From Candidatus Omnitrophota bacterium (GTDB lineage Bacteria; Omnitrophota; Gorgyraeia; Duberdicusellales; 4484-171), in the NCBI GenBank assembly GCA_021735655.1, contig JAIPGM010000005.1:32001-96000 (forward strand): DNA of 64,000 nt, written 5' to 3'. Shown in pieces: positions 49,720 to 64,000 of this stretch. Numbering within the stretch: position 1 is the first letter of the stretch; each line of letters begins with the position of its first letter. A program made the translations under genes and the position numbers. Below the pieces are notes generated by a model that did no database searches, had not been told where the DNA came from, and saw nothing but the letters and a program-made list of their open reading frames with translations.

Positions 49720-50676
49720 TTACATTACCAATTGAAGCATATTGAATAAATATCCTGTAATAATTATCGCCACCGTTGTTATTCCAAAAAAGATTGTTAT
49801 TAACTGCAATTTCATTGCTCTCCTTAAGATTATCGCTTCCGGAAAACTCAAGGCAGCTGTTGCCATCATAAAAGCAAGCGCTGTCCCCAGAGGAACACCT
49901 TTTTTAAATAAAACCACCGCTATCGGCACAATTGCCGCACAACTCCCATACATTGGCACACCTAAAATAGCTGCGATAGGCACTGAAAATAGGCCTGTTT
50001 TACTTATTATTGTATGTATTGTTTCTTGGGGGATATAGTTATGGATAAAAGCACCTATACCTACGCCTAATAATACCCACATCCATAATTTTTTTGTAAT
50101 AGATTTGGCCTCATCTATTCCAAAAGCAAGCCTATCTCTTATCCCTTTGTAATCTACCTCTTTAATCACTTGTTTATCTTCTGAGACTAAGCCTTTAACA
50201 AGATATCTCTCTAAGTTCATCTTCCCCAGAATTACCCCTGAGAAAACACCTATTATAATTCCGCTTAATACATAAAAAAGAGTAATTTTCCATCCGAAAA
50301 AACCAAGCATTACTATTACCAAATACTCATTAATCAAGGGTGAAGTTATCAAAAAAGAAAACGTAGCCCCTAAGGGGATACCGGCTTCTAAAAAACTCAA
50401 AAAAATAGGTATAGATGAACATGAACAAAATGGAGTTATTGAACCAAAAAGCGAAGCAAAAAGATTACCGAGAACTTTCTTCTTACCAATCCAATTCTTA
50501 ATCTTATTCTGAGATATGTAAGTTCTAACAAAACCGATGGCTGCTATCATGAAAAACAACAGTAATAGTATTTTAATAGCGTCATACAAAAAGAAATTAG
50601 TTACTCCTGCCAATCTTGACTCCGGGGCCAAGCCAAAAACAGAATAAACTAACCAATCTATTATCGGCTGCAGCAT
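49720..50676 (-). CDS. DUF318 (PF03773) permease with TPFCSCS motif, ArsP-like
   Basis: 318 aa, 8 TM helices. [11 protein letters not shown] matches the signature of the ArsP/DUF318 permease family. Confidence 0.7.
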
Positions 50677-50801
50677 GATTTGCCCTTATCTTTATCCTTA
50701 CTCTCACAACAAGATTTTGTTTTTGCCTTTTTTTCCATCTTTTTATCTAACTTTTCCACTAACTTACAAAAAAAACCTTTCTTCTTTTTTGAATCACTCA
50801 T
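50661..50801 (-). CDS. Unannotated 46-aa Lys- and Cys-rich small protein ([46 protein letters not shown])
   Basis: Own translation; absent from the ORF track because it is shorter than 60 aa. The ATG overlaps the TGA of the DUF134 gene (ATGA). RBS AAGGAGG lies 5 nt upstream. The TAA stop overlaps the permease ATG region (ATGCTGCAGCCGATAA). It carries a C-x18-CC-x10-CC pattern. Confidence 0.45.
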
Positions 50802-51100
50802 TTCTTCCTCCTTGTAATTTTGCAACATCCACCCTCAATCTTTATTGCTTTTATATTTACCAATGCATCACCTATTTTACTATAGGCAGAAGCAATTATT
50901 CTTGAAAAGGTAGGCCGAGATATTTTTAGTTTCTTTGCTGCTGCTTCTTGCGTCAATCCTTCATAATCAGCCAATCTTACTGCCTCAAACTCATCTAAAG
51001 TCATGTGTACCCCGTCTAATTGATTAGATGACTTACACTGTGGCCTGAAACATCTTTCTCCTGGCTCACATTTAACCCATCTGGTCTTTTTCGGTCTCAT
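50798..51100 (-). CDS. DUF134 (UPF0251) family putative DNA-binding protein with sigma-70 region-4-like HTH
   Basis: MRPKKTRWVKCEPGERCFRPQC...LTLDEFEAVRLADYEGLTQEAAAKKLKISRPTFSRII matches the conserved DUF134 core. AGAGGT RBS. Preceded by a 30-bp perfect palindrome. Confidence 0.7.
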   Translation of the reverse strand: MRPKKTRWVKCEPGERCFRPQCKSSNQLDGVHMTLDEFEAVRLADYEGLTQEAAAKKLKISRPTFSRIIASAYSKIGDALVNIKAIKIEGGCCKITRRKK

Positions 51101-51110
51101 AGCTACCTCT

Positions 51111-51140
51111 TTATGTTATGAACATATGTTCATAACATAA
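51111..51140. promoter_or_regulatory. Perfect 30-bp palindrome TTATGTTATGAACAT|ATGTTCATAACATAA immediately upstream of the RBS of the DUF134 operon
   Basis: Verified as its own reverse complement. It ends 11 nt before the DUF134 ATG, adjacent to the AGAGGT RBS. Confidence 0.6.
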
Positions 51141-51161
51141 TATCAGCCAAAACCGCTCATG

Positions 51162-51199
51162 TCAAAAAAAATATCCCGAAGGAAAAATCTTCGGGATAT
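51162..51199 (-). terminator. Hairpin ATATCCCGAAG-gaaaaat-CTTCGGGATAT with T-tract (minus strand) after the MBL-rhodanese gene
   Basis: 11-bp perfect stem. On the minus strand it is followed by TTTTTTTT. Confidence 0.55.
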
Positions 51200-51309
51200 T
51201 AAAAAATAAATATAAGCTCTAATCCAAAACTATTAAAATTATTTACCGATTATTACCTCCCACAACCTGTAACCATGTTAGCTTAATTCTTCTAAATCTT
51301 TCACCTGAA

Positions 51310-52551
51310 TCATTGACTGATTGAACAAGTTCCACCGCCGATTTTCGACTTGTATATCTTTTTGTTATAAGGAAGCTTCATCAGCAACATTCCCATAAGG
51401 CAACTATTAGTTACCCCGGCAAAAATTAAAGCACAAGCAACCCATATTGAAATCCAAATAAAACCACTATGTAAAAAGTAAGCTAAAACTATCCCTAACA
51501 ACATCAAAATTCCAGCAACAACTCTCACTTGTCGCTCCAAAGACACCGAAGACTCCCCTTTGAGGACCGGAAATTTCTGCTTTTGCCAGGCAATTAAGCC
51601 TCCCTTCATTACTTTAACCGAAACAATGCCAGACTGCAATAACATATCAGCAGCCATCGGAGAACGGTTTCCGGTACGACAAAACACTATATACGATCGA
51701 TCAGTCTGACTTAAATCTTTTATTTTAGAATTCAACATATCTATTGGAATATTGATTGAATCCTTAATATGGGACTCATTAAACTCTAATGCTGAACGCA
51801 CATCTAAAAACTTCAAATTAGAGTCTTTAGAAGCATACTCTTTAGCTTCACCAGCTGAAACCATCTCTAAGGTCGTAGCTTCCCCTTTCTGATTAACCCT
51901 AATGATATTATCAATATTAAATGGTTTAGGAAGCTGCTTTGAACGAGCGTCGCTGACAAACTTATCTTTACTGATTTGGCGCATAAAAGGATTATTATTT
52001 TTTTCCTTGGCAATAGTAGATGAAACCTTCCCGTTGTAGTCGTGCGAAGGAAAAATAATAGTGTCTCCCGGAAAATTCTTAAACCTCTGTAAAGTTTCAA
52101 ACATTGCTTCCGGAGACCCATTTTGAAAATCGGTTCTCCCGACACTTCCGATCAGAAGAACGTCACCGGTAAATAATCGACCCTCTCCGTAAATAGCTAT
52201 GGTATCATCGGTGTGACCAGGAGCATATACAACCTTAAACTGCTTTGTTGCTAAAGCTATAGTATCCCCATCTTTAAGCTTTTGATCAACTACTTCGGAA
52301 ATTACTTTTTCGTGCATCAAAACAGGTACTTTAAGCAATTTCTTCAAATTTGCCGCTAAAGAAAAATGATCAGCATGAGTATGGGTATCGATTATATACT
52401 TTAAGTTTAGTTTCTTTTTTTTAAGATAATTGAGATAGTCTTCCTGAAGGCTTATATGTGGATCGATAACTAAGGCTTGATTTTGCGAGCCTAAAATATA
52501 AGAATAGCAACTTCCAGCAGTAAATTGTTTCATTGAAAAATCTTTATTCAT
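51310..52551 (-). CDS. MBL-fold hydrolase (persulfide-dioxygenase/ETHE1-like) fused to a rhodanese domain and a C-terminal two-TM anchor
   Basis: IIDTHTHADHFS metal-binding motif. Rhodanese active-site loop CRTGNRS. C-terminal hydrophobic YgaP-like segment. The architecture resembles CstB-type fusions. Confidence 0.75.
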   Translation of the reverse strand: MNKDFSMKQFTAGSCYSYILGSQNQALVIDPHISLQEDYLNYLKKKKLNLKYIIDTHTHADHFSLAANLKKLLKVPVLMHEKVISEVVDQKLKDGDTIALATKQFKVVYAPGHTDDTIAIYGEGRLFTGDVLLIGSVGRTDFQNGSPEAMFETLQRFKNFPGDTIIFPSHDYNGKVSSTIAKEKNNNPFMRQISKDKFVSDARSKQLPKPFNIDNIIRVNQKGEATTLEMVSAGEAKEYASKDSNLKFLDVRSALEFNESHIKDSINIPIDMLNSKIKDLSQTDRSYIVFCRTGNRSPMAADMLLQSGIVSVKVMKGGLIAWQKQKFPVLKGESSVSLERQVRVVAGILMLLGIVLAYFLHSGFIWISIWVACALIFAGVTNSCLMGMLLMKLPYNKKIYKSKIGGGTCSISQ

Positions 52552-52610
52552 ACCCCCCCTTTTTTTTACTTAATTTAATGATAAAACTTAGTTTCAAAAT
52601 GTCAAGAAAC

Positions 52611-52680
52611 AAAAAAGCCTGCCAAGAAATGGCAGGCCAAAAAGCAAAACCCCTTGCAGTCTCAATGATTGCAAGGGGTT
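52611..52680 (-). terminator. Two tandem hairpin terminators after the small secreted-peptide gene
   Basis: Hairpin 1 at 52648..52680 (AACCCCTTGCA...TGCAAGGGGTT) is followed on the minus strand by TTGCTTTTT. Hairpin 2 at 52617..52637 is the repeated GCCTGCC...GGCAGGC element followed by TTTTTT. Confidence 0.55.
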
Positions 52681-52704
52681 TAAAATTCAACTCACTAAAG
52701 AGAA

Positions 52705-52854
52705 TTACCAACCAGGTCCATCAGGGATACCATCTCCTGAATTAGGAGCTGGACCAGGCCCATTTCCCTTTTTGCTCTTTTCTTCAGCGAAAGAACTTCC
52801 AACAGTAGCAAGGAATAAGAGTAAGATTAGGATTAAACCAGTAACTTTTTTCAT
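52705..52854 (-). CDS. Unannotated 49-aa secreted Gly/Pro-rich peptide (MKKVTGLILILLLFLATVGSSFAEEKSKKGNGPGPAPNSGDGIPDGPGW)
   Basis: Own translation. RBS AAGGAGGTGA lies 6 nt upstream. It has a classic signal peptide with AXA-like cleavage site SFA/EE. It is followed by two hairpin terminators. Confidence 0.4.
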   Translation of the reverse strand: MKKVTGLILILLLFLATVGSSFAEEKSKKGNGPGPAPNSGDGIPDGPGW

Positions 52855-53132
52855 ACTCACCTCCTTCTAGATTATTAAACTTCTATTTATTTTATCGCAT
52901 GGATTTTTCCTGTCAAATAATTAAAAAGAATGTTAAAGTCAAGCCTTTATATCTTACATTACGGCAACTTTTTAACTACTATGTCAAATGTAAAAGTGCT
53001 GACCCCTTCAGGACGACAGGCAAAAAAATACCCCCCATCAAACAACAGAAAAGCAACAACTACAAGCTCCTTGTCTAAGTCTATACCCATTATTCTTCCT
53101 AAAATACAAATTTATCAATTTATCTATAGATG

Positions 53133-53160
53133 TTGACCAACCCCTCCGCCTTGGTATAAT
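53133..53160 (+). promoter_or_regulatory. Near-consensus sigma-70-type promoter TTGACC-N16-TATAAT ending 8 nt before the crtI-like ATG
   Basis: -35 TTGACC at 53133..53138 and -10 TATAAT at 53155..53160. This implies a leaderless or near-leaderless transcript for the gene starting at 53169. Confidence 0.5.
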
Positions 53161-53168
53161 AATATCGA

Positions 53169-54572
53169 ATGAAAAACAAGATAGCTATTATTGGTGCCGG
53201 GGTTGGCGGCTTAGCTACAGCTGCCCGCTTAAGCTTTAAAGGCCACCCGGTAGAAGTCTATGAAAAACTTACCTGTTGTGGCGGCAGAGCCAATATCATA
53301 GAAGACAAAGGGTTTAAGTTTGATACCGGGCCTTCTTTTGTGATGATGCCTGACTTCTTTAAAGAAGTCTTTGACTACTGCCAAGAAGATATCAAAGCTT
53401 ATCTGGACTTAAAAGTCCTGGATAAAAATTATAAAATATTTTATCCTGACGGCGATTCGCTTACTATCCATAAAGACAATCAAAAAACCGAAGCTGAACT
53501 GGAAAGGATAGAACCGGGAAGCTCTAAAGGCTATAAAAACTTTATTGTTGAAACCGGTAAAATCTATAAAGCCGTAGTTCCTCTGCTCTATCGCTGTTTC
53601 CGGCCCCAGGATGCCTTTAATCCGGCTTACTGGAAACTGATCAACAAACTGCATCTGGGAAAATCTTACTGGCAACTGGCAAAAAAGTTCTTTAAATCCG
53701 ATAAACTCTGCTACGCTTTTACCTTTGAAGCTATGTTTATCGGCGTCTCCCCTTTTAAGACTCCGGCCTTTTACAGTGTGATCGGTTACACTGACCAAGT
53801 CGATAAAATCGCTCACCCCATAGGCGGAATGTACCAAATACCTAAAGCTTTAGAAAAAATGGCTTTGAAATTCGGAACAAAGTTTAACTACCAACGTGAA
53901 ATAACCTCGCTAGAAGAAATCAAGGCTGATAAATTTGTGATCAATGCCGACTATTCTTTTGCTCAAAGTAAACTACTGGGAAAAAAGATCCCTGATTACG
54001 ACTATTCCTGCTCAGTGCTCCTGTTCTACTGGGGAATGAAAAAGAAAATACCCAACCTCGAGCATCACAATCTTTTCTTTGCTCAAGACCTAAGAAATAA
54101 CCTGAAAAATATTTTCCAAAACGGTATTGTGGGCGATGATTTTTCTTTTTATATTCACGTTCCCACAGTCACTGACCCCTCACTGGCCCCTGAAGGAAAG
54201 GATATCCTCTATATTTTAGCTCCGGTGCCGAATCTTAAAACATTTAAAGGGGATTTCAAAATCTACGAAGATAGAATAAGAAAAAAAGTTATTGCTAAAA
54301 TTGAATCACTGTGCGGATTTAAAATTGAAGATTCAATTGAAACCGAACACAAGTTTTACCCCGAAGATTTTATAAAAAAATACAGTATACTCTACGGGGC
54401 TACTTTTGGCCTAGCTCACAGCTTAAAACAAAGTGCTTTTTTCAGACCGCCTAACTACACCTCTAAACAAAAAAACATTTATTTTGTAGGGGCCAGCACC
54501 CAGCCTGGGGGCGGACTACCTCCAGTTATTGCCTCATCACGAATAGTGGCTGATTTGATTACTAAGAGCTAA
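53169..54572 (+). CDS. Phytoene-desaturase-family FAD oxidoreductase (CrtI/CrtD-like)
   Basis: IAIIGAGVGGLATAARL dinucleotide motif. 467 aa with a CrtI-like C-terminal region. Confidence 0.75.
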   Translation: MKNKIAIIGAGVGGLATAARLSFKGHPVEVYEKLTCCGGRANIIEDKGFKFDTGPSFVMMPDFFKEVFDYCQEDIKAYLDLKVLDKNYKIFYPDGDSLTIHKDNQKTEAELERIEPGSSKGYKNFIVETGKIYKAVVPLLYRCFRPQDAFNPAYWKLINKLHLGKSYWQLAKKFFKSDKLCYAFTFEAMFIGVSPFKTPAFYSVIGYTDQVDKIAHPIGGMYQIPKALEKMALKFGTKFNYQREITSLEEIKADKFVINADYSFAQSKLLGKKIPDYDYSCSVLLFYWGMKKKIPNLEHHNLFFAQDLRNNLKNIFQNGIVGDDFSFYIHVPTVTDPSLAPEGKDILYILAPVPNLKTFKGDFKIYEDRIRKKVIAKIESLCGFKIEDSIETEHKFYPEDFIKKYSILYGATFGLAHSLKQSAFFRPPNYTSKQKNIYFVGASTQPGGGLPPVIASSRIVADLITKS

Positions 54573-55413
54573 CCCCGATCAAGGCCCTTATTTTCTCAAT
54601 TATTTTTTTGGTGACTTTATCAGGAGTAGAAGCTCCGGCGGTTATTCCGATTCTTTTAGCACCTTTAAACCATTCTTTTCTTAAGTCATTATCTGACTGA
54701 ACCCAATGGCTTTTCTTATTAACTGACCGTGATATTTCATATAGGCGCCGAGTATTAGCGCTGGTCTTTGAACCGATAATAACAACTACATCATTCTTAA
54801 GCGGCAAAATTCGAATCTCAGCCTGTTTTCTTCGGGTAGGAACACAGATGGTGTTAAAAAATTTTAAATCCTTAATCTGAACCCTTAAACTTTTAACTAT
54901 TTTTTTTACCTTCTCGCTATTTTGAGTTGACTGCACTACCATCCCGGCTTTTTTTATTTTTTTGAGTCGGGCTAAAGATAACTTATTGCTAATAATCAAA
55001 GGTTTACGCTTAAGGTTTCCCACAATGCCTTTAACTTCATGGTGATTCTCATCTCCGATAATAATTACCACTCTGCCTTCTTTTTCCAGGCCTTGAGCTA
55101 TTTTATGGATTTCTTTAACCATCGGACAAGTAGCATCAATCAGCTTATAACCTAAGCCTCTAGCCTGCTTCATGGTCTTGAGGCTGCTCCCGTGAGCCCT
55201 TATTAGCAAAACTTTACCTTTACCATTTTTTAATACTTTTACCTTTTTTATTCCTGAGGCGGCAATATCCCGGCAAACATCTTCGTTGTGAACAATATCA
55301 CCGAGCATCTCTACCAAAGGATAATCTCCGGCAGACTTTAAAGCAATGTCTATTGCTCTTTTTACACCAAAACAAAATCCGGCTGATTTAGCTAGATTGA
55401 TTTTAGGTTTCAT
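54562..55413 (-). CDS. ispH: 4-hydroxy-3-methylbut-2-enyl diphosphate reductase
   Basis: AGFCFGVKRAI N-terminus and conserved Cys ligands (C13, C96-like, C195-like positions). 283 aa. Confidence 0.85.
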   Translation of the reverse strand: MKPKINLAKSAGFCFGVKRAIDIALKSAGDYPLVEMLGDIVHNEDVCRDIAASGIKKVKVLKNGKGKVLLIRAHGSSLKTMKQARGLGYKLIDATCPMVKEIHKIAQGLEKEGRVVIIIGDENHHEVKGIVGNLKRKPLIISNKLSLARLKKIKKAGMVVQSTQNSEKVKKIVKSLRVQIKDLKFFNTICVPTRRKQAEIRILPLKNDVVVIIGSKTSANTRRLYEISRSVNKKSHWVQSDNDLRKEWFKGAKRIGITAGASTPDKVTKKIIEKIRALIGVSS

Positions 55414-56273
55414 CGGTATTTTCCTTCAATAATTACCTTGGCTAAGAGCCCCAATTTACCTAAGCGGCTCACCGAAGCCCGCTGGAAAAACAAATCGTAA
55501 TTATTCTTTTCAATCTGATCAAGGATCGCCCCATATACCTTGCTCATCGCACAAACTACAAATCTGGAGCGCTTATCGGTTATCATCTTAATCCCTTCAT
55601 CAGCCAATTGATAGTAATTTCTGGCCCGCCGAATCTGATATTTAATAAAAGTGATAAACTTATCGCTAATTTTTTCTGAACTCAAATCCTCCTGGCTCAA
55701 GCCAAAACTTTTTAGTTCATCCTGAGGTAGGTATATTCTGCCTAAGCCTAAATCCTCTTTGACATCGCGCAGGATATTGGTAAGCTGCATGGCAATACCC
55801 AGATCAACTGCCGGCTGTTTTGCCTTATTGTCCCGATAACCAAAAACCTCAAGCATGATCAAACCCACCACTCCGGCAACTTTATAGCAATAATCGTATA
55901 GCTGCTTGAAATCAGCATAACTTTTCTTTTCCAAATCTAAATGCATACCTTTTATCAATTGATCAAAATAGTTCTTGGGTATATTATATTTATCTACTGT
56001 CTGCTTAAAAGCTAAAAGCAAAGCTTCCCGGGAGCAATCCAAGCCATACGCAGAATTTATCTTTTCTTCAATCCGGCTTAATTTTTTTAAGCCGCCGTTT
56101 GCGTTATCTACGCTGTCGTCGCTTATCCGACAAATGGCATATATACTGTAAGCGGCACGCCTTTTCTCTAAACCTAGAAATTTCGAGGCAAAATAGAAGG
56201 TTTTGGCGTGTTTTTTAGTCAGCTTTTCAGCCTCTTTAAATCCTTGATCAATGACTTTACCCATTGAAACCAT
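55410..56273 (-). CDS. Phytoene/squalene synthase family (CrtB/HpnD-like)
   Basis: Head-to-head prenyl synthase motifs (YAICRISDDSVD and the second Asp-rich region). 4-nt overlap with ispH. Confidence 0.8.
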   Translation of the reverse strand: MVSMGKVIDQGFKEAEKLTKKHAKTFYFASKFLGLEKRRAAYSIYAICRISDDSVDNANGGLKKLSRIEEKINSAYGLDCSREALLLAFKQTVDKYNIPKNYFDQLIKGMHLDLEKKSYADFKQLYDYCYKVAGVVGLIMLEVFGYRDNKAKQPAVDLGIAMQLTNILRDVKEDLGLGRIYLPQDELKSFGLSQEDLSSEKISDKFITFIKYQIRRARNYYQLADEGIKMITDKRSRFVVCAMSKVYGAILDQIEKNNYDLFFQRASVSRLGKLGLLAKVIIEGKYR

Positions 56274-56348
56274 TTTATATTACCGACCCCAAAAAGCCAA
56301 CAAGAATTTACCTTGCTAAATCCTAGATTGCTAACTAAAATATATCTG

Positions 56349-56657
56349 ATGTCAGATTATTTAAAGGTTTTAATCCTTTCAGTTCTGGTTCCTTTTGCCT
56401 GCAGCTTCTACCGGCCACTGAGGTTTTATGAAAATCTAAAAGCCTTGCTTGTTAGTGTAGGCTTAGTGGTCCTGATTTTTGGAGCCTGGGACATCTTAGC
56501 TACAGCCCGCGGCCACTGGCATTTCAATCCTCAAGGAGTAGGATCGCTAAAAATAATTAACTTACCCCTAGAAGAAGTATTATTCTTTATAGTTATTCCT
56601 TTTTGCTGTATTTTTACCTGGGAAGCAATAAACTATATTAAAAATAAAATCCAATGA
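56349..56657 (+). CDS. Lycopene cyclase domain protein (heterodimeric CrtYc/CrtYe-like subunit)
   Basis: About 100 aa with three TM helices and the PLEE(V/F)LFF motif. Start moved to the first ATG, because the ORF-track start is a TTG. Confidence 0.6.
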   Translation: MSDYLKVLILSVLVPFACSFYRPLRFYENLKALLVSVGLVVLIFGAWDILATARGHWHFNPQGVGSLKIINLPLEEVLFFIVIPFCCIFTWEAINYIKNKIQ

Positions 56658-56941
56658 AAGAATATACTCTCTTAGCTATAAGTTCGGTGGTTTTAACTAT
56701 TATCTGGAATAATTTAAGCGGAGTAAAGCTGTTTAAAAAGAAAATTTTTTATTTATTTCTTTTTATAATCTTTCTGTTTAAACTCCTAGTCAATGGAGCC
56801 CTAACTAAAACTATTGTTTTATATAATCCCGATTTCTTTTTGGGCTTAAGACTGGGCACCATCCCCCTGGAAGACTTTCTTTTTGGCTTTAGCATGGTCA
56901 CTCTCTCTATAATATTCTGGGAACAGTTTAAAAAGCAATGA
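56654..56941 (+). CDS. Lycopene cyclase domain protein (CrtYd/CrtYf-like subunit)
   Basis: 95 aa, TM helices, the PLEDFLFGFSMV motif. 4-nt overlap with the preceding subunit gene. Confidence 0.6.
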   Translation: MKEYTLLAISSVVLTIIWNNLSGVKLFKKKIFYLFLFIIFLFKLLVNGALTKTIVLYNPDFFLGLRLGTIPLEDFLFGFSMVTLSIIFWEQFKKQ

Positions 56942-57798
56942 AAAAAATATTTTTTATTCTTATTCTTTTAATATTCTTCTCCCTGCCATTGTTTGCTTTG
57001 GACTGGATAAATCTCCACCAACAGGCCTCGACTCAAACTCTGAGTAAAAATCCTCAATCTGAAAACGAACTATACATCCAGGGATTGGTTTATCTAAACG
57101 AACATAAAGACAATGAAGCTAAAGAGGTCTTCGACAAGCTTATTTCCCAAAACAACAACCTCTTTGAAGCCCGCTGGGGCCTAGCTGAAGTCTTGCGGCG
57201 TAAAAAAGCCTTAAAACAAAGCCAGGAAATACTTGATCAAATAATCCAAACTAATCCCGGTTTCTCACCGGCCTACATAACTCTTGCCTATATAAAGTAT
57301 ACCCAAACTAAATTCAATGAAGCCGCAAAACTGGCTTTAAAAGTCATAAAACAAGGCCCTGAGGCATCCGATATTGATAACTTTAGCCGGGCTTACCTTA
57401 TTTTTGCCGGCTCCAAAGGCTTAATCGCTTCAAAGGGCGGACCGCTCTCAAAACTGATAAATGGAACTCAGGTATTACCGAACTTAAAACGGGCTGAAAA
57501 GCTACGGCCGGACGCTCCGGAAGTCTTATTTGGCCTAGGCAACTTTTATTTCTTGGCCCCTGGTATTGCCGGCGGTAATCTGGACAAAGCCCAAGACTAT
57601 TTGAAACGCTGTCTTAAAAAAGATCCCTCGTTTGCCGATGCCTATGTAAGGCTGGCTCAAGTATATAAAGCCAAAAACAATGCCGAACAGTATGAGCTCT
57701 ATCTTAAAAAAGCAAAAGCCATTGATCCGCTTAACGAACTGCTCAACGATGAGCTCTCGGGAGAATGTAAGTTTAATTGCCAGACAGTAGAAGAATAA
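56938..57798 (+). CDS. Secreted TPR-like repeat protein
   Basis: Signal peptide MKKIFFILILLIFFSLPLFA followed by TPR-like helices. Confidence 0.55.
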   Translation: MKKIFFILILLIFFSLPLFALDWINLHQQASTQTLSKNPQSENELYIQGLVYLNEHKDNEAKEVFDKLISQNNNLFEARWGLAEVLRRKKALKQSQEILDQIIQTNPGFSPAYITLAYIKYTQTKFNEAAKLALKVIKQGPEASDIDNFSRAYLIFAGSKGLIASKGGPLSKLINGTQVLPNLKRAEKLRPDAPEVLFGLGNFYFLAPGIAGGNLDKAQDYLKRCLKKDPSFADAYVRLAQVYKAKNNAEQYELYLKKAKAIDPLNELLNDELSGECKFNCQTVEE

Positions 57799-57808
57799 AC
57801 CCGGTGGT

Positions 57809-58849
57809 TTAAGACTTTAGCAGTTTTTCCGGATATTTAATTAAAAAATCCTTATAGTTGCCGCTGATCGAAGACGAGTTTATCAAAGCTTGTGATCTTT
57901 TAACCAAAGAATTAATTTCTCTCTCAGCATAATCCAAGGCTCCGGATTCAGTAATAATCCGACGCACCTTTACCAAATCGTTTTGGCTTACCTTACTTTT
58001 AGCCAATAATCTTTTTATCGACATCCTAACAGCTTTGCTGCTATTCTGATAAGCTTGCCAGATAAGCAGGGTCTTTTTTGACTCCTGTAGATCAGAAAGG
58101 GTTGATTTACCGATTTTCTGCTCATCGCCAAACATACCTAAAATGTCATCTCGTATCTGAAAAGCCCTTCCCAAAAATATTCCAAACTTAAATAGTTTAT
58201 CGATTTCTTTTTTAGGGGCTCCGGCTAATATCGCACCGCTAGCTAAAGGCGTAGAAAAAGTATAACAAGCAGTCTTATAATCATATATCCGATAAATATT
58301 GTCTTTAGTTATCTTTTCAATCGAATCTATTCCACCCAAAAGCTCAATAAACTCTCCTGAACCAGTGTAGATAGCCGCCTCGATAAATTTTTTTAAAGCC
58401 TTTTCCTTGCGTTCCGGGTCCTCTCTTATCGCCAGAAAAGCTTTTATAGCAATAGCATACATTACATCACCGATAACTATACTTAAATCTTGACCGCTAA
58501 ATTTAACCTTCTTATAGTTTTTTAAATATTTATCCAATAATTTATGCATTGAAGGCTTACCACGACGAGTATCAGACTTATCAATTATATCGTCATGGAC
58601 AAGCATGAAATCATGCATCAGCTCTATAGCCAAAGCACTGCGGTATAATCCGGCAGGTAATTTCTTACTAAATCCCGAATAGCCGACCACAAAAAGTATC
58701 GGCCTGATCCGTTTTCCTTTACGCAGGATAAAATCTTTGATTGATTTAAACAGCAGCGGTGAGATTTTGCTCAAAGAATAGGTTTTATCTATATCGGTAG
58801 CGAACTTTTTAAGCTCAAGCTCAACTTTCTTTTTTATTTTATCAGGCAT
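57809..58849 (-). CDS. Polyprenyl diphosphate synthase (trans-IPPS family, GGPP/FPP synthase-like)
   Basis: First Asp-rich motif LVHDDIIDKSDTRRG and second Asp-rich motif FQIRDDILGMFGD. Confidence 0.8.
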   Translation of the reverse strand: MPDKIKKKVELELKKFATDIDKTYSLSKISPLLFKSIKDFILRKGKRIRPILFVVGYSGFSKKLPAGLYRSALAIELMHDFMLVHDDIIDKSDTRRGKPSMHKLLDKYLKNYKKVKFSGQDLSIVIGDVMYAIAIKAFLAIREDPERKEKALKKFIEAAIYTGSGEFIELLGGIDSIEKITKDNIYRIYDYKTACYTFSTPLASGAILAGAPKKEIDKLFKFGIFLGRAFQIRDDILGMFGDEQKIGKSTLSDLQESKKTLLIWQAYQNSSKAVRMSIKRLLAKSKVSQNDLVKVRRIITESGALDYAEREINSLVKRSQALINSSSISGNYKDFLIKYPEKLLKS

Positions 58850-58871
58850 TTATTTATGCTACCATATAAAC

Positions 58872-59768
58872 ATGGGCAGTTCAAATATTAAAAACTATAC
58901 AAGAGCCTTAAGGCTTCCCTTTGTCACTGCTAGCCTATTTCCTTTTATTTTCGGATCATTATTGAGCTTCTCCTCCTGGCTAAACTTTATTCTCGGCTTA
59001 ACTTGCGCTATCGCCACTCACCTAGGAGCCAATCTAATCAATGACTATGCCGACTCAAAATCCGGAGCTGACTGGCAAGATACAAAGTTTTACCGCTTTT
59101 TCGGCGGCTCTAAATTAATTCAGGAAGGAGTCTTTTCGGAAAAGTTTTACCTAAAAAATGCGATTTTTGCTTTTTTACTGGCCTTAGCCTGTGTTCTGAT
59201 TCTAGCAGCACGATTTAAAAATTTATCAGTGTTAGGTTATTATTTATTTATCTTGTTTTTGGGCTTTTCCTATTCCCATAAACCGCTTAAATTTTCTTAC
59301 CACCGCCTCGGTGAATTGATTATTTTTCTTCTTTTCGGACCGGCTCTGGTCATGGGTGCTTTATTTATCCAAACCCAACATTTTCCTACCTTGCAAGGTT
59401 TTCTGCTTTCAATACCCTTAGGAATATTTACCACGGCGATTCTTTTTGCCAATGAAATACCTGATTATCTAGATGACCGAAAAGCTAATAAATTTACTTT
59501 AGTCAGCTTGTTCGGACCGAAAAAATCATATATATTTTATTATCTTCTCTTGCTCGTGGGCTTTTCCTCAATAATTATTAATGTTATCCTAGGCTATCTG
59601 GACTGGCCGGCGCTTTTGGCTCTTGCCTTAGCCTTACTTGGTTATAAAGCCGGCAAAATATTAAAAGAAAACTACGCCGACAAAACAAAACTAATAAATT
59701 CGGCTAAAATGACCATAGCTTTACATAGCCTGGTAAGTATAATTTTAATTTTAAGTCTGATCTTATGA
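58872..59768 (+). CDS. UbiA-family prenyltransferase (lycopene-elongase- or MenA-like)
   Basis: NDYADSKSGAD and DYLDDRKAN Asp-rich motifs. About 8-9 TM helices. Confidence 0.75.
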   Translation: MGSSNIKNYTRALRLPFVTASLFPFIFGSLLSFSSWLNFILGLTCAIATHLGANLINDYADSKSGADWQDTKFYRFFGGSKLIQEGVFSEKFYLKNAIFAFLLALACVLILAARFKNLSVLGYYLFILFLGFSYSHKPLKFSYHRLGELIIFLLFGPALVMGALFIQTQHFPTLQGFLLSIPLGIFTTAILFANEIPDYLDDRKANKFTLVSLFGPKKSYIFYYLLLLVGFSSIIINVILGYLDWPALLALALALLGYKAGKILKENYADKTKLINSAKMTIALHSLVSIILILSLIL

Positions 59769-60832
59769 AAAAAATTGTTATTGTCGGTGGTGGCTTTGCC
59801 GGAATTTCAGCCGTAAAAACCCTGGCTAAATCTAAACTGGAATTAGTTCTTATCGATAAAAAGCAAAGTTGGGATTTTCTACCCTGCCTTCCCGATATCC
59901 TCAGCCAAAAAATAAATCCTGTATTTCTTACCGTAAATTTAGCTGATTTTATTAAAAAACTTGGCGGTAAATTTATCAATCAAGAAGTAAAATCGGTAGA
60001 TTTGGCTCAAAAGAATCTTAAGCTAGATTCTCAAGACCTAAGCTATGACTATCTGCTTCTTTGTAGCGGAACTAAAACTAATTTTTTCGGTAACTCGGAG
60101 ATGAAAAGACAGGCACTAAAACTAGACTCAATAGCAGACGCCGAGCTTATCCTTAGCCGCCTAGAAAAAGATGACTTTGATAAAATAGTCGTTATCGGTG
60201 GTGGTTATACCGGAATTGAAATTGCCACTAACCTGCGACAGCGTCAGGCTAAACCGATCAGCATTATCGAAAAATCACCCAACCTGCTCGGTACTCTGCC
60301 TCAATGGATGAAAGATTACGTTAAAGCTAATCTTGATAGATTAAATATTGAAGTCCTGGCTTCTTCTGAAATCAGCCAGATTCCCAAAAGAACTTTGCTG
60401 ATCTGGTCAGCCGGAGTAAAATCAGACGACTACATCTTTAACTTAAAACAAAACAAAACTCCCCAGGGAAGATTAAAGGTGGATAAATACTTAAAAATAA
60501 CCGACAACTGCTTTGTGGCCGGCGACATAGCTAACTTTGATTATCGCAGCCGGCCCTTAAGAATGTCTATACAATTTGCTATTACTCAAGGCAGACTAGC
60601 TGCAAGAAATATCATAAACAGCATCAAAGGCAAACCTCTAACCGAATACAAACCTAAGGATTTAGGCTATGTTATACCCATGCCCAACAACAAATCCTGC
60701 GGTTTAGTCTTGGGCTTGAGAGTAAAAAGCCGCTTAGCCACTTTTCTCCACTATTTTATGTGTATTTTTCGCTCGGAAAGTTTTAAAAATAAGCTGGGAA
60801 TAATTAAAAATCTTATAAAAGGAGGTGCCTGA
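59765..60832 (+). CDS. NAD(P)/FAD-dependent oxidoreductase (type II NADH dehydrogenase / SQR-like fold)
   Basis: Two GxGxxG motifs (IVGGGFAGISA and VIGGGYTGIEIA). 4-nt overlap with the UbiA gene. Confidence 0.7.
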   Translation: MKKIVIVGGGFAGISAVKTLAKSKLELVLIDKKQSWDFLPCLPDILSQKINPVFLTVNLADFIKKLGGKFINQEVKSVDLAQKNLKLDSQDLSYDYLLLCSGTKTNFFGNSEMKRQALKLDSIADAELILSRLEKDDFDKIVVIGGGYTGIEIATNLRQRQAKPISIIEKSPNLLGTLPQWMKDYVKANLDRLNIEVLASSEISQIPKRTLLIWSAGVKSDDYIFNLKQNKTPQGRLKVDKYLKITDNCFVAGDIANFDYRSRPLRMSIQFAITQGRLAARNIINSIKGKPLTEYKPKDLGYVIPMPNNKSCGLVLGLRVKSRLATFLHYFMCIFRSESFKNKLGIIKNLIKGGA

Positions 60833-61245
60833 TGAAAAGCTATGCGACTCTGCCTCTGCGCCTGGCTCTTGGAGCAGTGTTTATTTTTCACGGCCTACAA
60901 AAAGCCTTTGGGCTATTTGGCGGACCAGGAATAAAAGGTTTCTCAGGAATGCTTGCTGGACTAGGCTTTCCTTTTTCGGAAATCATGGCAATTCTAGTTG
61001 CCTACGTTGAGCTAATCGCCGGAATCCTTTTAGTTTTGGGGGTTCTAACAAGAATCTCTTCTCTATCACTTTTAATAATTATGATAGTTGCCCTGCTTAA
61101 AGTCCATCTAGCTAAAGGTTTTTCGATTATGAACGGTGGTTATGAATATGATCTGGTTCTAATTTTGATTTGTCTTTCGCTAATCATCTCCGGAGGCGGA
61201 AAATTAAGTTTAGGCCAAAAACTAAATAAATTAAAAAATCTTTAA
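60832..61245 (+). CDS. DoxX-family membrane protein
   Basis: LRLALGAVFIFHGLQKAFGLFGG N-terminus typical of DoxX. Four TM helices. The start overlaps the upstream stop. Confidence 0.7.
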   Translation: MKSYATLPLRLALGAVFIFHGLQKAFGLFGGPGIKGFSGMLAGLGFPFSEIMAILVAYVELIAGILLVLGVLTRISSLSLLIIMIVALLKVHLAKGFSIMNGGYEYDLVLILICLSLIISGGGKLSLGQKLNKLKNL

Positions 61246-61262
61246 AATAAAGTTACAATAAG

Positions 61263-61592
61263 TTAAATCTTACAGCCACAATTTTTTCTTTTTAATATCT
61301 TTACCTGCTCTTTATAGGAATCTATAAATATACACTGCTTTTTTGAGCCGGTAGCTAATTTTCTATCAAGGTCGCTCTTATGCCTATATCCTCTATTGGC
61401 CATCTCCGCAACAAGTTTATTGTGCCGCAAATATAACGAAGCCAATTTACACTTCCATCTAAGCGTCTCCGGATGCCGAGAGTATCCTTTTTTATTCTTA
61501 GTTAGAATAGACCAAATAGCATGTAATTCCCTATGCTCACCTAGAAGATGATTGCGACAAAGTTTTTTTGGAGGTATATCCCAAATTCTCAT
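61263..61592 (-). CDS. Pyrimidine-dimer DNA glycosylase (T4 endonuclease V / DenV family)
   Basis: 109 aa. The N-terminal motif DIPPKKLCRNHLLGEHRELHAIW parallels the T4 endoV LADQHLMAEYREL region. Confidence 0.55.
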   Translation of the reverse strand: MRIWDIPPKKLCRNHLLGEHRELHAIWSILTKNKKGYSRHPETLRWKCKLASLYLRHNKLVAEMANRGYRHKSDLDRKLATGSKKQCIFIDSYKEQVKILKRKNCGCKI

Positions 61593-61721
61593 AATTAAAA
61601 GCTTGATTCTTCACAGCCTTTTCTGCTATTTCTACCGCCATTACCCGCCAACAACAAAAACAAAAAAGCAACCCTAGGTAGAGAGCAGTAAAAAAGTTTA
61701 AGATATTTTGTTGCGAAATAA

Positions 61722-63470
61722 TTAAAAACTAACTTTGTAAGTAACCGATCCGCCAAGTTCGTAAAAGTCTTCTTTAAGCTGAGTTTCTAAATCAACCAAA
61801 AGAGTGGTATTTTTCTTGTTGAAGAATTCAAAACGGGAACCGACATTAAAGCTTGAGGGTGCCGGTCGGTAGCCTGAAGTTTCAAAAGAAGCCCCACCGC
61901 CCTCAAAACTGGCTAAAGACTGCTGTTTTTCATTCACCACACTGTAGAAATAACGAAAACGAAGCTCGGGAGTGAACAGCATCTTCTCGCTCTCAAAAAC
62001 CTTACTCAACCTAAGACCTCCGCCCAGCTGTAAAGTTTGGTAATTCTGAGACTCAACGCTGAGATTCAGCGCTCCGGCTCCAGTCTCAGTATAATCATCG
62101 AGCTCGAGATTAGTGTAGCTTAAAGCTAAAAGCGGAATGATCTCGAAATTCTTCTTTTTCAACTTATAGCCGCCTTCCAGGTAAGCTGAGAGCTGCTGGC
62201 CATCGTAATCAGCATTAGCCGTCCTTTCGATAGAACCGACAGTTACCTTTCTCGAATTATTATATTCACTGTAGCCGTAAGTCAGCACTGCATCAAACAG
62301 ATAAGGCTTATCCGGATGGCTATATTCTCCGTAAAGGCCGGTCTGATAACTTGTTATCCGAGTGCGCTCTTCGTTATCTTTTGACCTGATCTTACCTTCG
62401 CTAAACCCTTGGTCTATACCCAAGCGTAAAGAATTATTCAAAAACCCGTGGTCAAAGCCGATAACATTACCCCAAAGCTTAGCCCGGTAACCCTTACTTG
62501 CACCACGCTCACCCTGCCGGGCATAGCCACCATAAGACTGAAACCAGATATCGTTATTAAAAGAATCCTCTAATGAGTCTTCCTCAAGGCTATCTTCCTC
62601 GATCTTTGAATCTTGTAAACGCAATACCGTGGTCCTGACAAATTTATCCAGGGAACCGTTTGAGGTATTGATTACTCCCCTGTTAGCAGAAAGGCCCATG
62701 TCGTTCTCGGCCGAAGCTACGCCACCACCAGATAAAGCTTCGAGAGTATTAAGAATCGTGGTCATGTCCGAAGAAGGATTGCTTATATTATCGAGAACCC
62801 GACCGACAGCAGCTGAATTAGAGCTGGAAGCCTGGCTTTCAAACCCAGAGGTTGACCGGTCAGCAGTTAAAACCAAGTTGCCTCCGGAATTTGACGCGCT
62901 AAATGACACCCGAGAGTTACTTGAGGTAACTGTAGTCGGAGCATTCCCTATTCCTGAACCATTAGTATCGATAATAGTAAAGGTTGCATTTGACGGTATA
63001 TAGATATCATTGCTAACTGTAACCGCCACTGTACTTGCTGTATTTACCACTGCTGCGGCACCAGAAGTTATCCTGCCTGAGGTTGAAGGCGTATCAACGG
63101 TCAGGTTAAGGGTAGTCCCTGATCCTTGAGTATAAATGCCGGTACCGCCAAGAGTAAGAGTATTGGCTCCCAAGCCCAAACTGCCGGCATTATCTAAAGT
63201 AAGGTTTCCGGTAATTGTGCGGCTGCCAGTAAGATTTAAAGTTCCGCCGTCTCCTGCCGAATCTACAGTAGTAGTTACGGCCGCCAGGTTATGCCCTAGA
63301 AAAAGTGTACCCTCCCCGGGCAGACGTCTGACTGCGGCTCGATTCGCTATGAATTCCGCATAGAAGTCACCAGACCCAGCAAAAATCACGCCAGAATACG
63401 CCTGATTCCGACGGATTCCGAGGATCCGAAACAAAGCCCTGCCTTTGCCCTTGAAGCTCAAGGGTGCCAA
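61722..63470 (-). CDS. Autotransporter (passenger with Gly/Thr/Ser-rich beta-helix repeats plus C-terminal beta-barrel translocator); apparently missing its signal peptide
   Basis: C-terminal roughly 280 aa is a typical autotransporter beta-domain ending ...YKVSF. The ORF begins at a TTG directly after an in-frame stop with no signal peptide. GC is about 45 % versus about 37 % for neighbouring genes. Confidence 0.7.
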   Translation of the reverse strand: MAPLSFKGKGRALFRILGIRRNQAYSGVIFAGSGDFYAEFIANRAAVRRLPGEGTLFLGHNLAAVTTTVDSAGDGGTLNLTGSRTITGNLTLDNAGSLGLGANTLTLGGTGIYTQGSGTTLNLTVDTPSTSGRITSGAAAVVNTASTVAVTVSNDIYIPSNATFTIIDTNGSGIGNAPTTVTSSNSRVSFSASNSGGNLVLTADRSTSGFESQASSSNSAAVGRVLDNISNPSSDMTTILNTLEALSGGGVASAENDMGLSANRGVINTSNGSLDKFVRTTVLRLQDSKIEEDSLEEDSLEDSFNNDIWFQSYGGYARQGERGASKGYRAKLWGNVIGFDHGFLNNSLRLGIDQGFSEGKIRSKDNEERTRITSYQTGLYGEYSHPDKPYLFDAVLTYGYSEYNNSRKVTVGSIERTANADYDGQQLSAYLEGGYKLKKKNFEIIPLLALSYTNLELDDYTETGAGALNLSVESQNYQTLQLGGGLRLSKVFESEKMLFTPELRFRYFYSVVNEKQQSLASFEGGGASFETSGYRPAPSSFNVGSRFEFFNKKNTTLLVDLETQLKEDFYELGGSVTYKVSF

Positions 63471-63659
63471 AATAGCCTTAAATACGCCTTAAAATAATGA
63501 GAATTTTTGAGGGGTTTTATGCCCAGAAAGGGCTATATGCTGTTTAGCGGGGTGCAGTTAATATGCGACCGGTTTTTAAGGTAGGAAAAGTCGCCTAACT
63601 TGTTGTAGAATGGACACTTACTCAAAACAACACTTTTTGCCATGAAAGGAGCTTTTGTA

Positions 63660-64000
63660 TCATGAACCACACCCAATCTTATACCATAAACGGCTGTATA
63701 TTCCAAGAGTTTTTACTGCTTCTGGGCAGGGTTGTCCACAGTGACCTGATCCGGCAGATGGAGTACCTGAAAGTGGAGAATGAGGTTCTGCGGACCAAAT
63801 GCCCGAAACGGATAACCACAAGCCCGGCCGAGAAACGTAAGCTCATCAAATACGGCCTTGCCTGCAGGGGCAGAATAAAAGGCATTATATCCATCGTAAG
63901 CTATTCTACCTTCAGGCGCTGGGTAAATGGCGATATCCGCAATAAATATAAGCCTTCCAAGCAAGGCACGCCCAGAAAGACCACACAGGAAATAATAGAC
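63660..64000 (+). mobile_element. 5' part of an IS transposase gene (HTH region of an rve/DDE-type transposase), runs off the window edge
   Basis: ATG at 63660 with a GAAAGGAG RBS. My own translation is MNHTQSYTINGCIFQEFLLLLGRVVHSDLIRQMEYLKVENEVLRTKCPKRITTSPAEKRKLIKYGLACRGRIKGIISIVSYSTFRRWVNGDIRNKYKP.... The LRxENxxLR-type N-terminus resembles IS transposases. Local GC is about 50 %. Confidence 0.5.

Follow-up and report, generated by a model that had tools for sequence, protein, structure and literature searches.

An Omnitrophota type Va autotransporter gene, very probably disrupted by an insertion sequence that supplies a false N-terminus

The end of the 64,000-nucleotide window (the whole stretch of DNA analysed here) carries an open reading frame (ORF) that is listed publicly as a complete protein (P0001, 579 residues, "autotransporter domain-containing protein") and lies next to a transposase gene on the opposite strand. 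The question raised by this locus is whether the ORF encodes an intact autotransporter and, if it does not, what has happened to it. An earlier note, made from the sequence, had described a horizontally acquired autotransporter gene that lacks a signal peptide and has been truncated at its 5' end by an insertion sequence (IS). Our analysis indicates that an IS of about 1.42 kb has very probably inserted within the region of a type Va autotransporter gene that encodes the passenger, leaving a chimeric remnant. The features of the locus are collected in Table 1.

Table 1. Features at the autotransporter–IS junction, in window coordinates
Feature	Position	Strand	Remarks
Autotransporter ORF	61722..63470	minus	582 aa, TTG start
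Native 3' remnant of type Va autotransporter gene	61722..63310	minus	codons 54/55–582 and TAA stop
Autotransporter β-barrel translocator domain	61791..62549	minus	ORF aa 308–560, Pfam PF03797
Remaining C-terminal portion of passenger	62550..63310	minus	ORF aa 54–307, Ser/Gly/Thr-rich, GC2 = 0.54
Fortuitous antisense frame in IS left end	63312..63470	minus	53 codons, TTG start
IS, left ~690 nt, cut by window end	63311..64000	plus	blastn and alignment A2
Conserved IS left terminus, CCTCCCCGGGCAGACGTCTGACTGCGG	63311..63337	plus	nearly invariant in seven copies
Long IS leader	63338..63661	plus	conserved blocks, e.g. GCCTTAAAATAATGAGAATTTTTGA (alignments A2, A3)
IS transposase, first 113 codons	63662..64000	plus	coiled-coil-like N-terminal segment and start of HTH region

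Comparison of the ORF with profile libraries revealed a strong match to the autotransporter barrel family PF03797 (E = 1.8e-54; 185.6 bits, cut-off 26) that takes in profile positions 1–253 of 255, and a match to TIGR01414 (74.5 bits, cut-off 16). The best relative of known structure is the barrel of EstA (PDB 3KVN, E = 8.8e-14), and the protein ends in ...VTYKVSF, with an aromatic last residue. The remnant resembles type Va autotransporters such as Pseudomonas aeruginosa EstA and the Omnitrophota metallophosphatase-autotransporters P0004–P0008 (about 970 residues) in its complete C-terminal barrel, its Ser/Gly/Thr-rich passenger stalk ahead of the barrel and its terminal Phe. The native part, in which the C-terminal end of the passenger is followed by the whole β-barrel, has an uninterrupted reading frame. 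Some 254 passenger residues are left, aligning with residues ~458–700 of P0004, and by this alignment the passenger is not complete. A Pyr_excise gene neighbours the ORF; exact-protein look-ups with the ORF, with the identical P0001 and with this neighbour, aimed at sequence past 64000, retrieved no record.

The N-terminus is a different matter. No Sec signal peptide is present in the ORF: the highest 11-residue Kyte–Doolittle mean within the first 70 residues is 1.29, against signal-peptide maxima of 2.8–3.6 within the first 40 residues of five intact homologues. This bears out the absence of a signal peptide reported earlier, and the TTG start was also correctly placed just after a stop, the nearest in-frame one being a TAA at 63491..63489, seven codons upstream. 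In BLASTP the ORF is 60% identical to P0004 and P0005, two Omnitrophota autotransporters of 970–976 residues, over about 520 residues, running from query residues 62–82 through the C-terminus. Alignment with these intact homologues locates the missing N-terminus: homology sets in at query residue ~62, equivalent to residue 458 of the 976 of P0004, and the junction described below falls at about residue 450 of the ~970-residue proteins. The latter have a clear signal peptide followed by an N-terminal metallophosphatase passenger; the remnant is short of its signal peptide and functional passenger, amounting to about 190–450 residues. Unlike P0004–P0008, it lacks the signal peptide and functional passenger of approximately the first 450 residues and carries 53 IS-encoded residues in their place.

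Where the native sequence stops is defined by the mobile element. The IS had been thought merely to abut the ORF; its left end in fact lies inside it, at 63311, and not in the 190-nt gap between ORF and transposase gene. For six independent copies of the ~1.42-kb element, found in unrelated contexts, similarity to the window sets in at exactly this base; the blastn alignments of four close copies in contigs of other metagenome-assembled genomes start at 63310–63312 (L002, 94.3% identity; L003, 92.9%; L004, 83.1%; L006, 81.1%). Alignment A2, of seven IS copies, places the boundary at the same 63311: the left flanks are unrelated as far as this base, and to its right CCTCCCCGGGCAG... hardly varies. 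The left end is common to the window, L002, L003, L004, L006 (two copies), L008 and L009, and is kept even in L008 and L009, which are only ~70% identical and whose flanks left of the terminus are unrelated. A short motif common to L002 and L008 is the one exception to the unrelatedness of the flanks. An independent assembly, Logan contig L001 (SRR12088349_2840), is 100% identical to the window over 49765–63367 and stops there, 57 nt into the IS.

The element spans 1418–1426 nt in L002, L003 and L004. If the window copy is of full length, its right end would be expected near 64,725–64,730, with the terminus ...TTATTGGGG near 64,727 (also written ...GCATTATTATTGGGG, near 64,725–64,730). No further copies of the IS were found within the window. 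That one sharply bounded segment of 1.42 kb recurs in at least six unrelated contexts marks it, on comparative grounds, as mobile.

It follows from the position of the boundary that the annotated protein of 579/582 residues is a chimera, its TTG and first 53 codons being derived from antisense IS DNA. This antisense frame continues without a shift into the autotransporter remnant, so that the N-terminus annotated for the protein is a false one. The peptide, MAPLGFKGKG...RRLPGE, is also encoded by IS copies L002 and L003, where it reads into unrelated flanks. Between the window and L003, the 53 codons differ by nine nonsynonymous and two synonymous changes; the corresponding values for the transposase are five and 13. 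These counts indicate that the 53-residue peptide evolves without purifying selection. In the diverged copy L004, a different frame is open at the IS left end. A genuine conserved antisense gene in the IS end was considered and rejected, the frame not being kept in L004 and the changes being mostly nonsynonymous.

The earlier note had placed the transposase on the strand opposite to the autotransporter, preceded by a ribosome-binding site and running off the window, and all of this holds; the ATG lies at 63662–63664 rather than at 63660, preceded by AAAGGAG at 63645–63651, and its distance from the TTG is 191 nt rather than 190 nt. On its own, the 113-codon fragment has no match in Pfam. It is, however, 97%, 96% and 91% identical to the starts of the ORFs of L002, L003 and L004, respectively, and in L003 and L004 there is a single ORF of 355 codons, whereas the L002 ORF is interrupted by a stop. 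The full-length proteins match rve_3 (37–39 bits, cut-off 26.5) together with HTH_21 and HTH_32, and a D..D..E pattern can be recognised by eye in a full-length relative (...WACDFF..., ...IRDGDAKFPKEF..., ...NPYAEGF...). The transposase-like ORF thus belongs to a real mobile element, as had been proposed, with the DDE/rve core in its full-length copies. The best NCBIfam matches are to IS3 (NF033516; 79.9 bits against a cut-off of 160) and IS481 (NF033577; 73.1 against 224). Judged from these profiles, the IS encodes a single 355-residue HTH and rve (DDE) transposase that falls below the curated cut-offs of both families. The plasmid-borne relatives have no more specific PGAP name than 'integrase core domain-containing protein'.

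The ends of the element are unusual. Repeat finding and local alignment of the ends revealed terminal inverted repeats of only 4–5 nt (CCCC...GGGG) and a weak subterminal match. The earlier note had held that a transposase-like ORF lacking inverted repeats and a DDE domain would refute its reading; the repeats are indeed all but lacking, and mobility is evident nevertheless from the recurrent segment. A k-mer scan of the flanks of L002, L003 and L004 for target-site duplications gave chance 3-mers only, with none of 3 nt or more at consistent offsets, and none was seen on inspection of L008 and L009, making five complete relatives in all. Elements of the rve type without target-site duplication or long terminal inverted repeats are atypical. 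The stop codon of the transposase lies at the very right terminus of the element. At the other end, the whole leader, 63311–63661, is 351 nt long. It has no credible match in Rfam; the only match, to RUF1, is a spurious one located elsewhere that scores 26 bits, the gathering score being 70. A folded structure for the leader has essentially no covariation support (RNAalifold covariation term −0.24 kcal/mol).

In summary of its affinities, the IS resembles IS481 and IS3 in the HTH and rve core of its full-length relatives, and IS481 in its length of ~1.4 kb and its one ORF. It differs from IS3 in having a single ORF (L003, L004), with no orfA/orfB −1 frameshift, from IS481 in lacking terminal inverted repeats beyond 4–5 nt and, in the five relatives, the 4–15-bp target-site duplication, and from both in its scores far below either cut-off, its unusually long leader of 351 nt and the placing of the transposase stop.

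These observations suggest a history for the locus. The IS left end lies at 63311 and its transposase is transcribed away from the remnant, so that the sequence 5' of the junction, in the orientation of the autotransporter gene, is IS DNA. Promoter, start codon and Sec signal peptide are gone from the remnant, as is the functional passenger at the N-terminus, for which the closest homologues have a metallophosphatase domain. The antisense frame that is open at the IS end joins the remnant by chance, giving the ORF of 582 codons that gene callers report as a complete autotransporter. The 582-residue product, if made, would be cytoplasmic and non-functional, and we infer that the locus is therefore a pseudogene; the comparison with intact homologues supports the view that the remnant cannot function as an autotransporter. 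The insertion appears recent, since the frame of the remnant is undamaged. The truncation of the 5' end proposed in the earlier note is accordingly sustained, by the junction at 63311 and by the homologue alignment, and the lost 5' part is probably to be found directly on the far side of the IS, provided that this caused no deletion as well.

That proviso leads to the strongest alternative, in which the 5' half of the gene is gone from the genome altogether, through an adjacent deletion mediated by the IS or through recombination between two IS copies. The window ends before the right end of the IS, so that simple insertion is no more than probable, and both the five complete relatives without target-site duplication or long terminal inverted repeat and the source contig count against it. 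Absence of the duplication is expected where recombination or rearrangement is frequent; it may equally be simply a property of this IS group. A search with the N-terminal 482 residues of the closest full-length homologue gave no match, and hence no N-terminal fragment protein, on the 109,460-bp source contig. This negative result is weak, since the lost passenger may not have been metallophosphatase-like (those of homologues P0002, P0009 and P0011 are of other kinds), and fragments of pseudogenes are often not released as proteins. The best match to the query, P0145 on L085, is another truncated metallophosphatase-autotransporter from an unrelated genome; it was discarded as the missing 5' half, since its nucleotide sequence resembles neither the window nor the IS. 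Other IS copies do appear to exist in the same sample, because the end of the Logan contig lies 57 nt inside the element. Overall, we regard removal of the 5' half as a real possibility, at rather less than even chances.

A second alternative is that the autotransporter gene was itself acquired horizontally, arriving on an island together with the IS or close to it. The G+C content is 0.454 in the native autotransporter part (61722–63310) and 0.471 in the IS part (63311–64000), against 0.376 in the rest of the window; relative to background windows of the same length, these values correspond to z = +4.0 and z = +3.7. The rise from about 37% to about 45% described previously is therefore accurate, whereas the ~50% given for the region beyond 63300 is nearer 47%, one 400-nt window reaching 0.497. 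Acquisition is favoured by the raw G+C of the autotransporter part and by its GC3 of 0.42–0.44, among the highest values in the native range (0.34 ± 0.04). The excess is, however, concentrated at codon position 2 (0.46–0.54 versus about 0.34) and accompanies a roughly twofold enrichment in Ser, Gly and Thr, so that the raw rise is mostly due to amino-acid composition. When synonymous codon usage is scored given amino-acid content, the autotransporter has z = −1.55, and four native window genes score lower; its codon usage is within the native range. The IS is clearly foreign by the same measure (transposase z = −5.0, GC3 0.61), and the proposed codon analysis thus points to foreign DNA for the IS only.

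The genomic setting of the homologues bears on the same question. The contexts of P0007 and P0002, inspected as positional orthologues, share no synteny with the window; on this comparison the autotransporters are an accessory gene family, which would be compatible with transfer. The top homologues, at 48–61% identity, are nevertheless nearly all labelled Omnitrophota. Moreover, the IS sits in the autotransporter gene and not beside it; being inserted into the gene, it does not form one co-transferred unit with it. We consider horizontal acquisition of the autotransporter unlikely, and the claim to that effect in the earlier note is not upheld.

Could the chimeric ORF be functional or switchable, either through an outward promoter and TTG in the IS end or through reversible excision, as a phase-variable adhesin? 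The frame of the remnant is fully open, the IS-derived frame is joined to it in frame, and the same outward frame is present in two close IS copies (L002 and L003). Against this, the protein has no signal peptide and therefore would undergo neither Sec export nor barrel insertion, the outward frame is not in frame in L004, and its changes are the nonsynonymous excess described above. Scanning of 63311–63662 on either strand gave no sigma-70-like promoter match, with fewer sites overall than in shuffled sequences, for a consensus that is perhaps ill-suited to the phylum. A 31-mer taken from the native flank of the junction had no exact match in JGI metagenome contigs, which thus gave neither an empty-site allele nor a second assembly. 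A working or switchable gene is, on this evidence, very improbable.

An assembly or binning chimera, in which an Omnitrophota contig has been joined to an unrelated repeat, is more improbable still: IS elements commonly cause misjoins, and near-identical copies do occur in metagenome-assembled genomes (MAGs) labelled as different phyla, but the unitig-based Logan contig reproduces the junction and 57 nt of the IS at 100% identity, and the break falls exactly at the conserved IS terminus, as in real insertions.

We return, then, to insertion of the IS into the autotransporter gene. Surface-protein and autotransporter pseudogenes disrupted by IS elements are known from IS-rich genomes such as those of Bordetella pertussis, Shigella and Yersinia pestis. 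The present case resembles these in that an IS interrupts the coding region for an accessory surface protein and leaves a fragment that automated annotation can miscall; it differs in its host, an uncultivated Omnitrophota MAG, and in its IS, which is of an unnamed PVC-associated group. The disruption of an accessory surface gene in this way is ordinary, routine biology.

The IS group itself is spread across Omnitrophota, Planctomycetota and Auribacterota, with copies 93–94% identical in MAGs of different phyla, and is characterised by a leader of ~350 nt, a transposase whose stop falls at the terminus itself, ends of the form CCTCCCC...GGGG and the lack of a target-site duplication in the five complete relatives. 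That it constitutes an unnamed group of rve-type insertion sequences behaving unlike IS3 or IS481 is a doubtful proposition, to which we attach little weight; if true, a different geometry of strand transfer or a site preference may be involved. The group is uncharacterised and could merit naming.

For annotation, the consequence is that a publicly listed complete protein of 579 residues has 53 residues of antisense IS origin and comes from what is probably a 5'-truncated pseudogene. The locus also counsels caution in taking raw G+C as evidence of horizontal transfer: amino-acid composition explains most of the rise, and the truly foreign DNA here, the IS, stands out by its synonymous codon usage. 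The open, outward-reading left end of this IS may also graft false N-termini onto fragments of host genes.

Residues 308–560 of the minus-strand autotransporter ORF match the Pfam autotransporter beta-domain over nearly the full profile length (E 1.8e-54), and the barrel assignment is also backed by TIGR01414 and by its likeness to the barrel of EstA (PDB 3KVN). An NCBI "autotransporter domain-containing protein", P0001, is 100% identical to this ORF (579/582 aa), and the nearest in-frame stop, a TAA at 63491..63489, lies 7 codons upstream of the TTG start. The earlier note had also read a plus-strand transposase frame with a ribosome-binding site; both are present, with the ATG slightly displaced from the 63660 that it gave. 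Just upstream of the locus, the gene table of the independently assembled contig L001 shows an isoprenoid/carotenoid-like cluster (53169–60832) encoding an amine-oxidase-type desaturase, LytB, squalene/phytoene synthase, a lycopene cyclase domain, polyprenyl synthetase, a UbiA prenyltransferase and a Pyr_redox_2 enzyme, followed by DoxX and a pyrimidine-dimer glycosylase.

Coordinates of the autotransporter ORF, the transposase frame and the insertion sequence copies
Feature	Coordinates	Strand	Details
Autotransporter ORF	61722..63470	minus	582 codons, TTG start, TAA stop
Antisense IS frame (ORF codons 1–53)	63470..63312	minus	from IS-copy comparison
Transposase N-terminal frame	ATG 63662–63664	plus	AAAGGAG at 63645–63651; leaves window after 113 codons
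Complete IS relatives	L002:3124–4541; L003:677–2093; L004:6034–7450; L008:8527–9928; L009:9650–11061

Nearly every database relative of the 113-aa transposase fragment is a short piece at the end of a contig, the usual mark of repeats breaking assemblies. Scanning species-representative genomes with an alignment of transposase fragments gave 80 loci, including L002, L003 and L004, which are 97%, 96% and 91% identical to the window fragment at the protein level. When window 62800–64000 was compared with all loci by blastn, the matches in these three and in L006 started at 63310–63312 and extended to 64000. The IS copies align mutually over 1418–1426 nt, where similarity ends. In a seven-copy alignment, sequence is near-invariant from CCTCCCCGGGCAGACGTCTGACTGCGG onward, also in L008 and L009 (~70% identical overall), and to the left of it the flanks are unrelated except for a short motif in L002 and L008. 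Because the copies share sequence from this point and their left flanks do not match, we place the left end of the IS at 63311, to within one base, and not in the 190-nt gap between the ORFs. A full-length copy should have its right end near 64,725–64,730. The exceptional motif (L002:3076–3123 and L008:8478–8526; ...ACTGAYATCACTCA.AG.CCGCGCCTCGCCCGACCC...) comprises ~40–50 nt directly left of IS copies of separate subgroups in separate MAGs. A third copy of it, at L008:18659, has no adjoining IS; the motif may be favoured as an insertion target or may itself be a small repeat element of another kind.

The best homologues of the ORF, all labelled Omnitrophota (56–61% identity, 970–976 aa), carry an N-terminal metallophosphatase domain (PF00149) and an autotransporter barrel. 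In BLASTP alignments, residue 62 of the ORF pairs with residue 458 of P0004, and residue 82 with residue 476 of P0005, both continuing to the C-terminus; native similarity therefore begins at the junction, deep in the passenger, and the missing N-terminus is located as the earlier note had proposed, by alignment to intact proteins. Since passenger lengths vary, with shorter and different ones in P0009 (710 aa) and P0014 (823 aa), the loss is given as a range of roughly 190–450 residues, the signal peptide always among them. The intact homologues open with a classic signal peptide, such as MKIVIRTSIILTFIVALGCSSLLCCFAFAE, and their 11-residue hydrophobic maximum is 2.8–3.6 versus 1.29 in the first 70 residues of the ORF, bearing out the claim that it lacks one. 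Type Va secretion requires Sec export before barrel insertion, so the predicted product would be unable to work as an autotransporter. The Omnitrophota set (P0004–P0008 and P0018–P0020) comprises autotransporters of ~700–976 aa with a calcineurin-like metallophosphatase passenger (PF00149); standalone relatives occur in Verrucomicrobia. In one full-text search combining Omnitrophota and autotransporter, no paper on such a passenger came up.

A simple insertion, which we consider somewhat the better account, would leave the 5' half of the gene just beyond the IS; its loss through IS-associated deletion or recombination is a less probable but serious contender. When the N-terminal half of P0004 was used as query, the 109,460-bp source contig gave no matching fragment, the best match being P0145 on L085, from a different genome. 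A 31-mer taken from native sequence beside the junction did not occur in JGI metagenome contigs. L085 (ENA ERZ27313066 k141_384973) itself holds a truncated metallophosphatase-autotransporter (4840–6336, 498 aa), broken off at nearly the same relative point and ending in an unrelated 17-aa tail, with no nucleotide similarity to the window and an IS110-type transposase gene ~540 nt upstream.

A MAG-specific misjoin at 63311 is disfavoured, since L001 (Logan contig SRR12088349_2840), an independent assembly 100% identical to window 49765–63367, passes the junction by 57 nt before it ends. A de Bruijn assembler is expected to stop on entering a repeat common to other copies in the sample. The end of L001 lies 30 nt past 63337, a variable IS site where the window has G and both L002 and L003 have C; this fits a k=31 graph in which the contig merges with further IS copies of the same sample.

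The peptide M(A/G)PLGFKGKG...AVRRLPGE, encoded by the antisense IS frame, is also encoded by L002 and L003 at their left ends, from which the frames continue into wholly different flanks. Between the window and L003, codons 1–53 differ by 9 nonsynonymous and 2 synonymous codon changes, versus 5 and 13 in the transposase N-terminus, and in the diverged copy L004 another frame is open at the IS left end. The nonsynonymous excess, the differing L004 frame and the varying flanks mark this as a frame that is open by chance in GC-rich sequence, and not a real antisense gene. The annotated 579/582-aa protein is therefore a chimera of IS antisense sequence and autotransporter remnant.

The 113-aa fragment by itself has no Pfam match. 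L003 and L004 each contain one 355-aa ORF, which begins 351 nt inside the left end and has its stop at the extreme right terminus (...TTATTGGGG); the L002 ORF has an internal stop. The 355-aa protein gives rve_3 above the Pfam cut-off, HTH_21 and HTH_32, and a D...D...E pattern judged by eye. It falls outside both curated NCBIfam families, scoring 79.9 bits for IS3 (cut-off 160) and 73.1 bits for IS481 (cut-off 224), and plasmid-borne relatives at 27–33% identity are annotated merely as "integrase core domain-containing protein". The earlier note would have doubted an IS lacking inverted repeats and a DDE domain: the catalytic features are there in full-length relatives, but the search turned up no long repeats, just CCCC...GGGG and a weak subterminal match. 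None of the five complete copies shows a target-site duplication, and their transposase stop codons either sit at the right flank or take their last bases from it. Such ends are atypical for rve-type elements, among which this IS is an unnamed member. Its mobility follows from the recurrence of the same sharp-ended segment in unrelated contexts and not from terminal repeats. At L006:4652–5439 one copy is nested in the transposase gene of another, after ...IVSYS (position 5253), the contig ending inside the nested insertion. Copies 93–94% nucleotide-identical to that of the window come from MAGs with the labels Omnitrophota and Syntrophaceae, and an 83% identical copy from a Thermodesulfovibrionia MAG; either the IS has recently passed between phyla or the bins are contaminated. 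Near another copy (L080:1376–8922 and L017:4935–12481, isolate R3-B46) lie >7 kb of internally repetitive DNA, probably a giant repetitive gene, with self-matches of ~71% identity at offsets ~70–75 nt apart.

GC content is 0.454 over 61722–63310, 0.471 over 63311–64000 and 0.376 in the remaining window. Relative to same-length background windows the excess is ~4 and 3.7 SD, so the reported rise is real, although "about 50%" over the IS was slightly high. It gives no support to the idea that the autotransporter is foreign: the excess sits mostly at codon position 2, where GC is ~0.34 in other genes but 0.46 overall here and as much as 0.54 in the passenger, because Ser, Gly and Thr are enriched about twofold. 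GC3 (0.42–0.44) lies at the high end of native values (0.34 ± 0.04). The codon analysis that had been suggested was run as a likelihood score of synonymous choice for the given amino-acid content and gave z = −1.55 for the autotransporter, with four native genes lower, and z = −5.0 for the transposase fragment (GC3 0.61). The compositionally foreign part is the IS, not the autotransporter. Close homologues of the latter stand in non-syntenic contexts, so the family is accessory; GC alone does not demonstrate horizontal transfer, and transfer of the gene within the phylum is conceivable.

The proposal that the IS truncated the 5' end of the autotransporter gene thus holds, with the junction at 63311 and a chimeric ORF. 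The locus is most probably a pseudogene, and its truncation by an IS is a routine kind of event.
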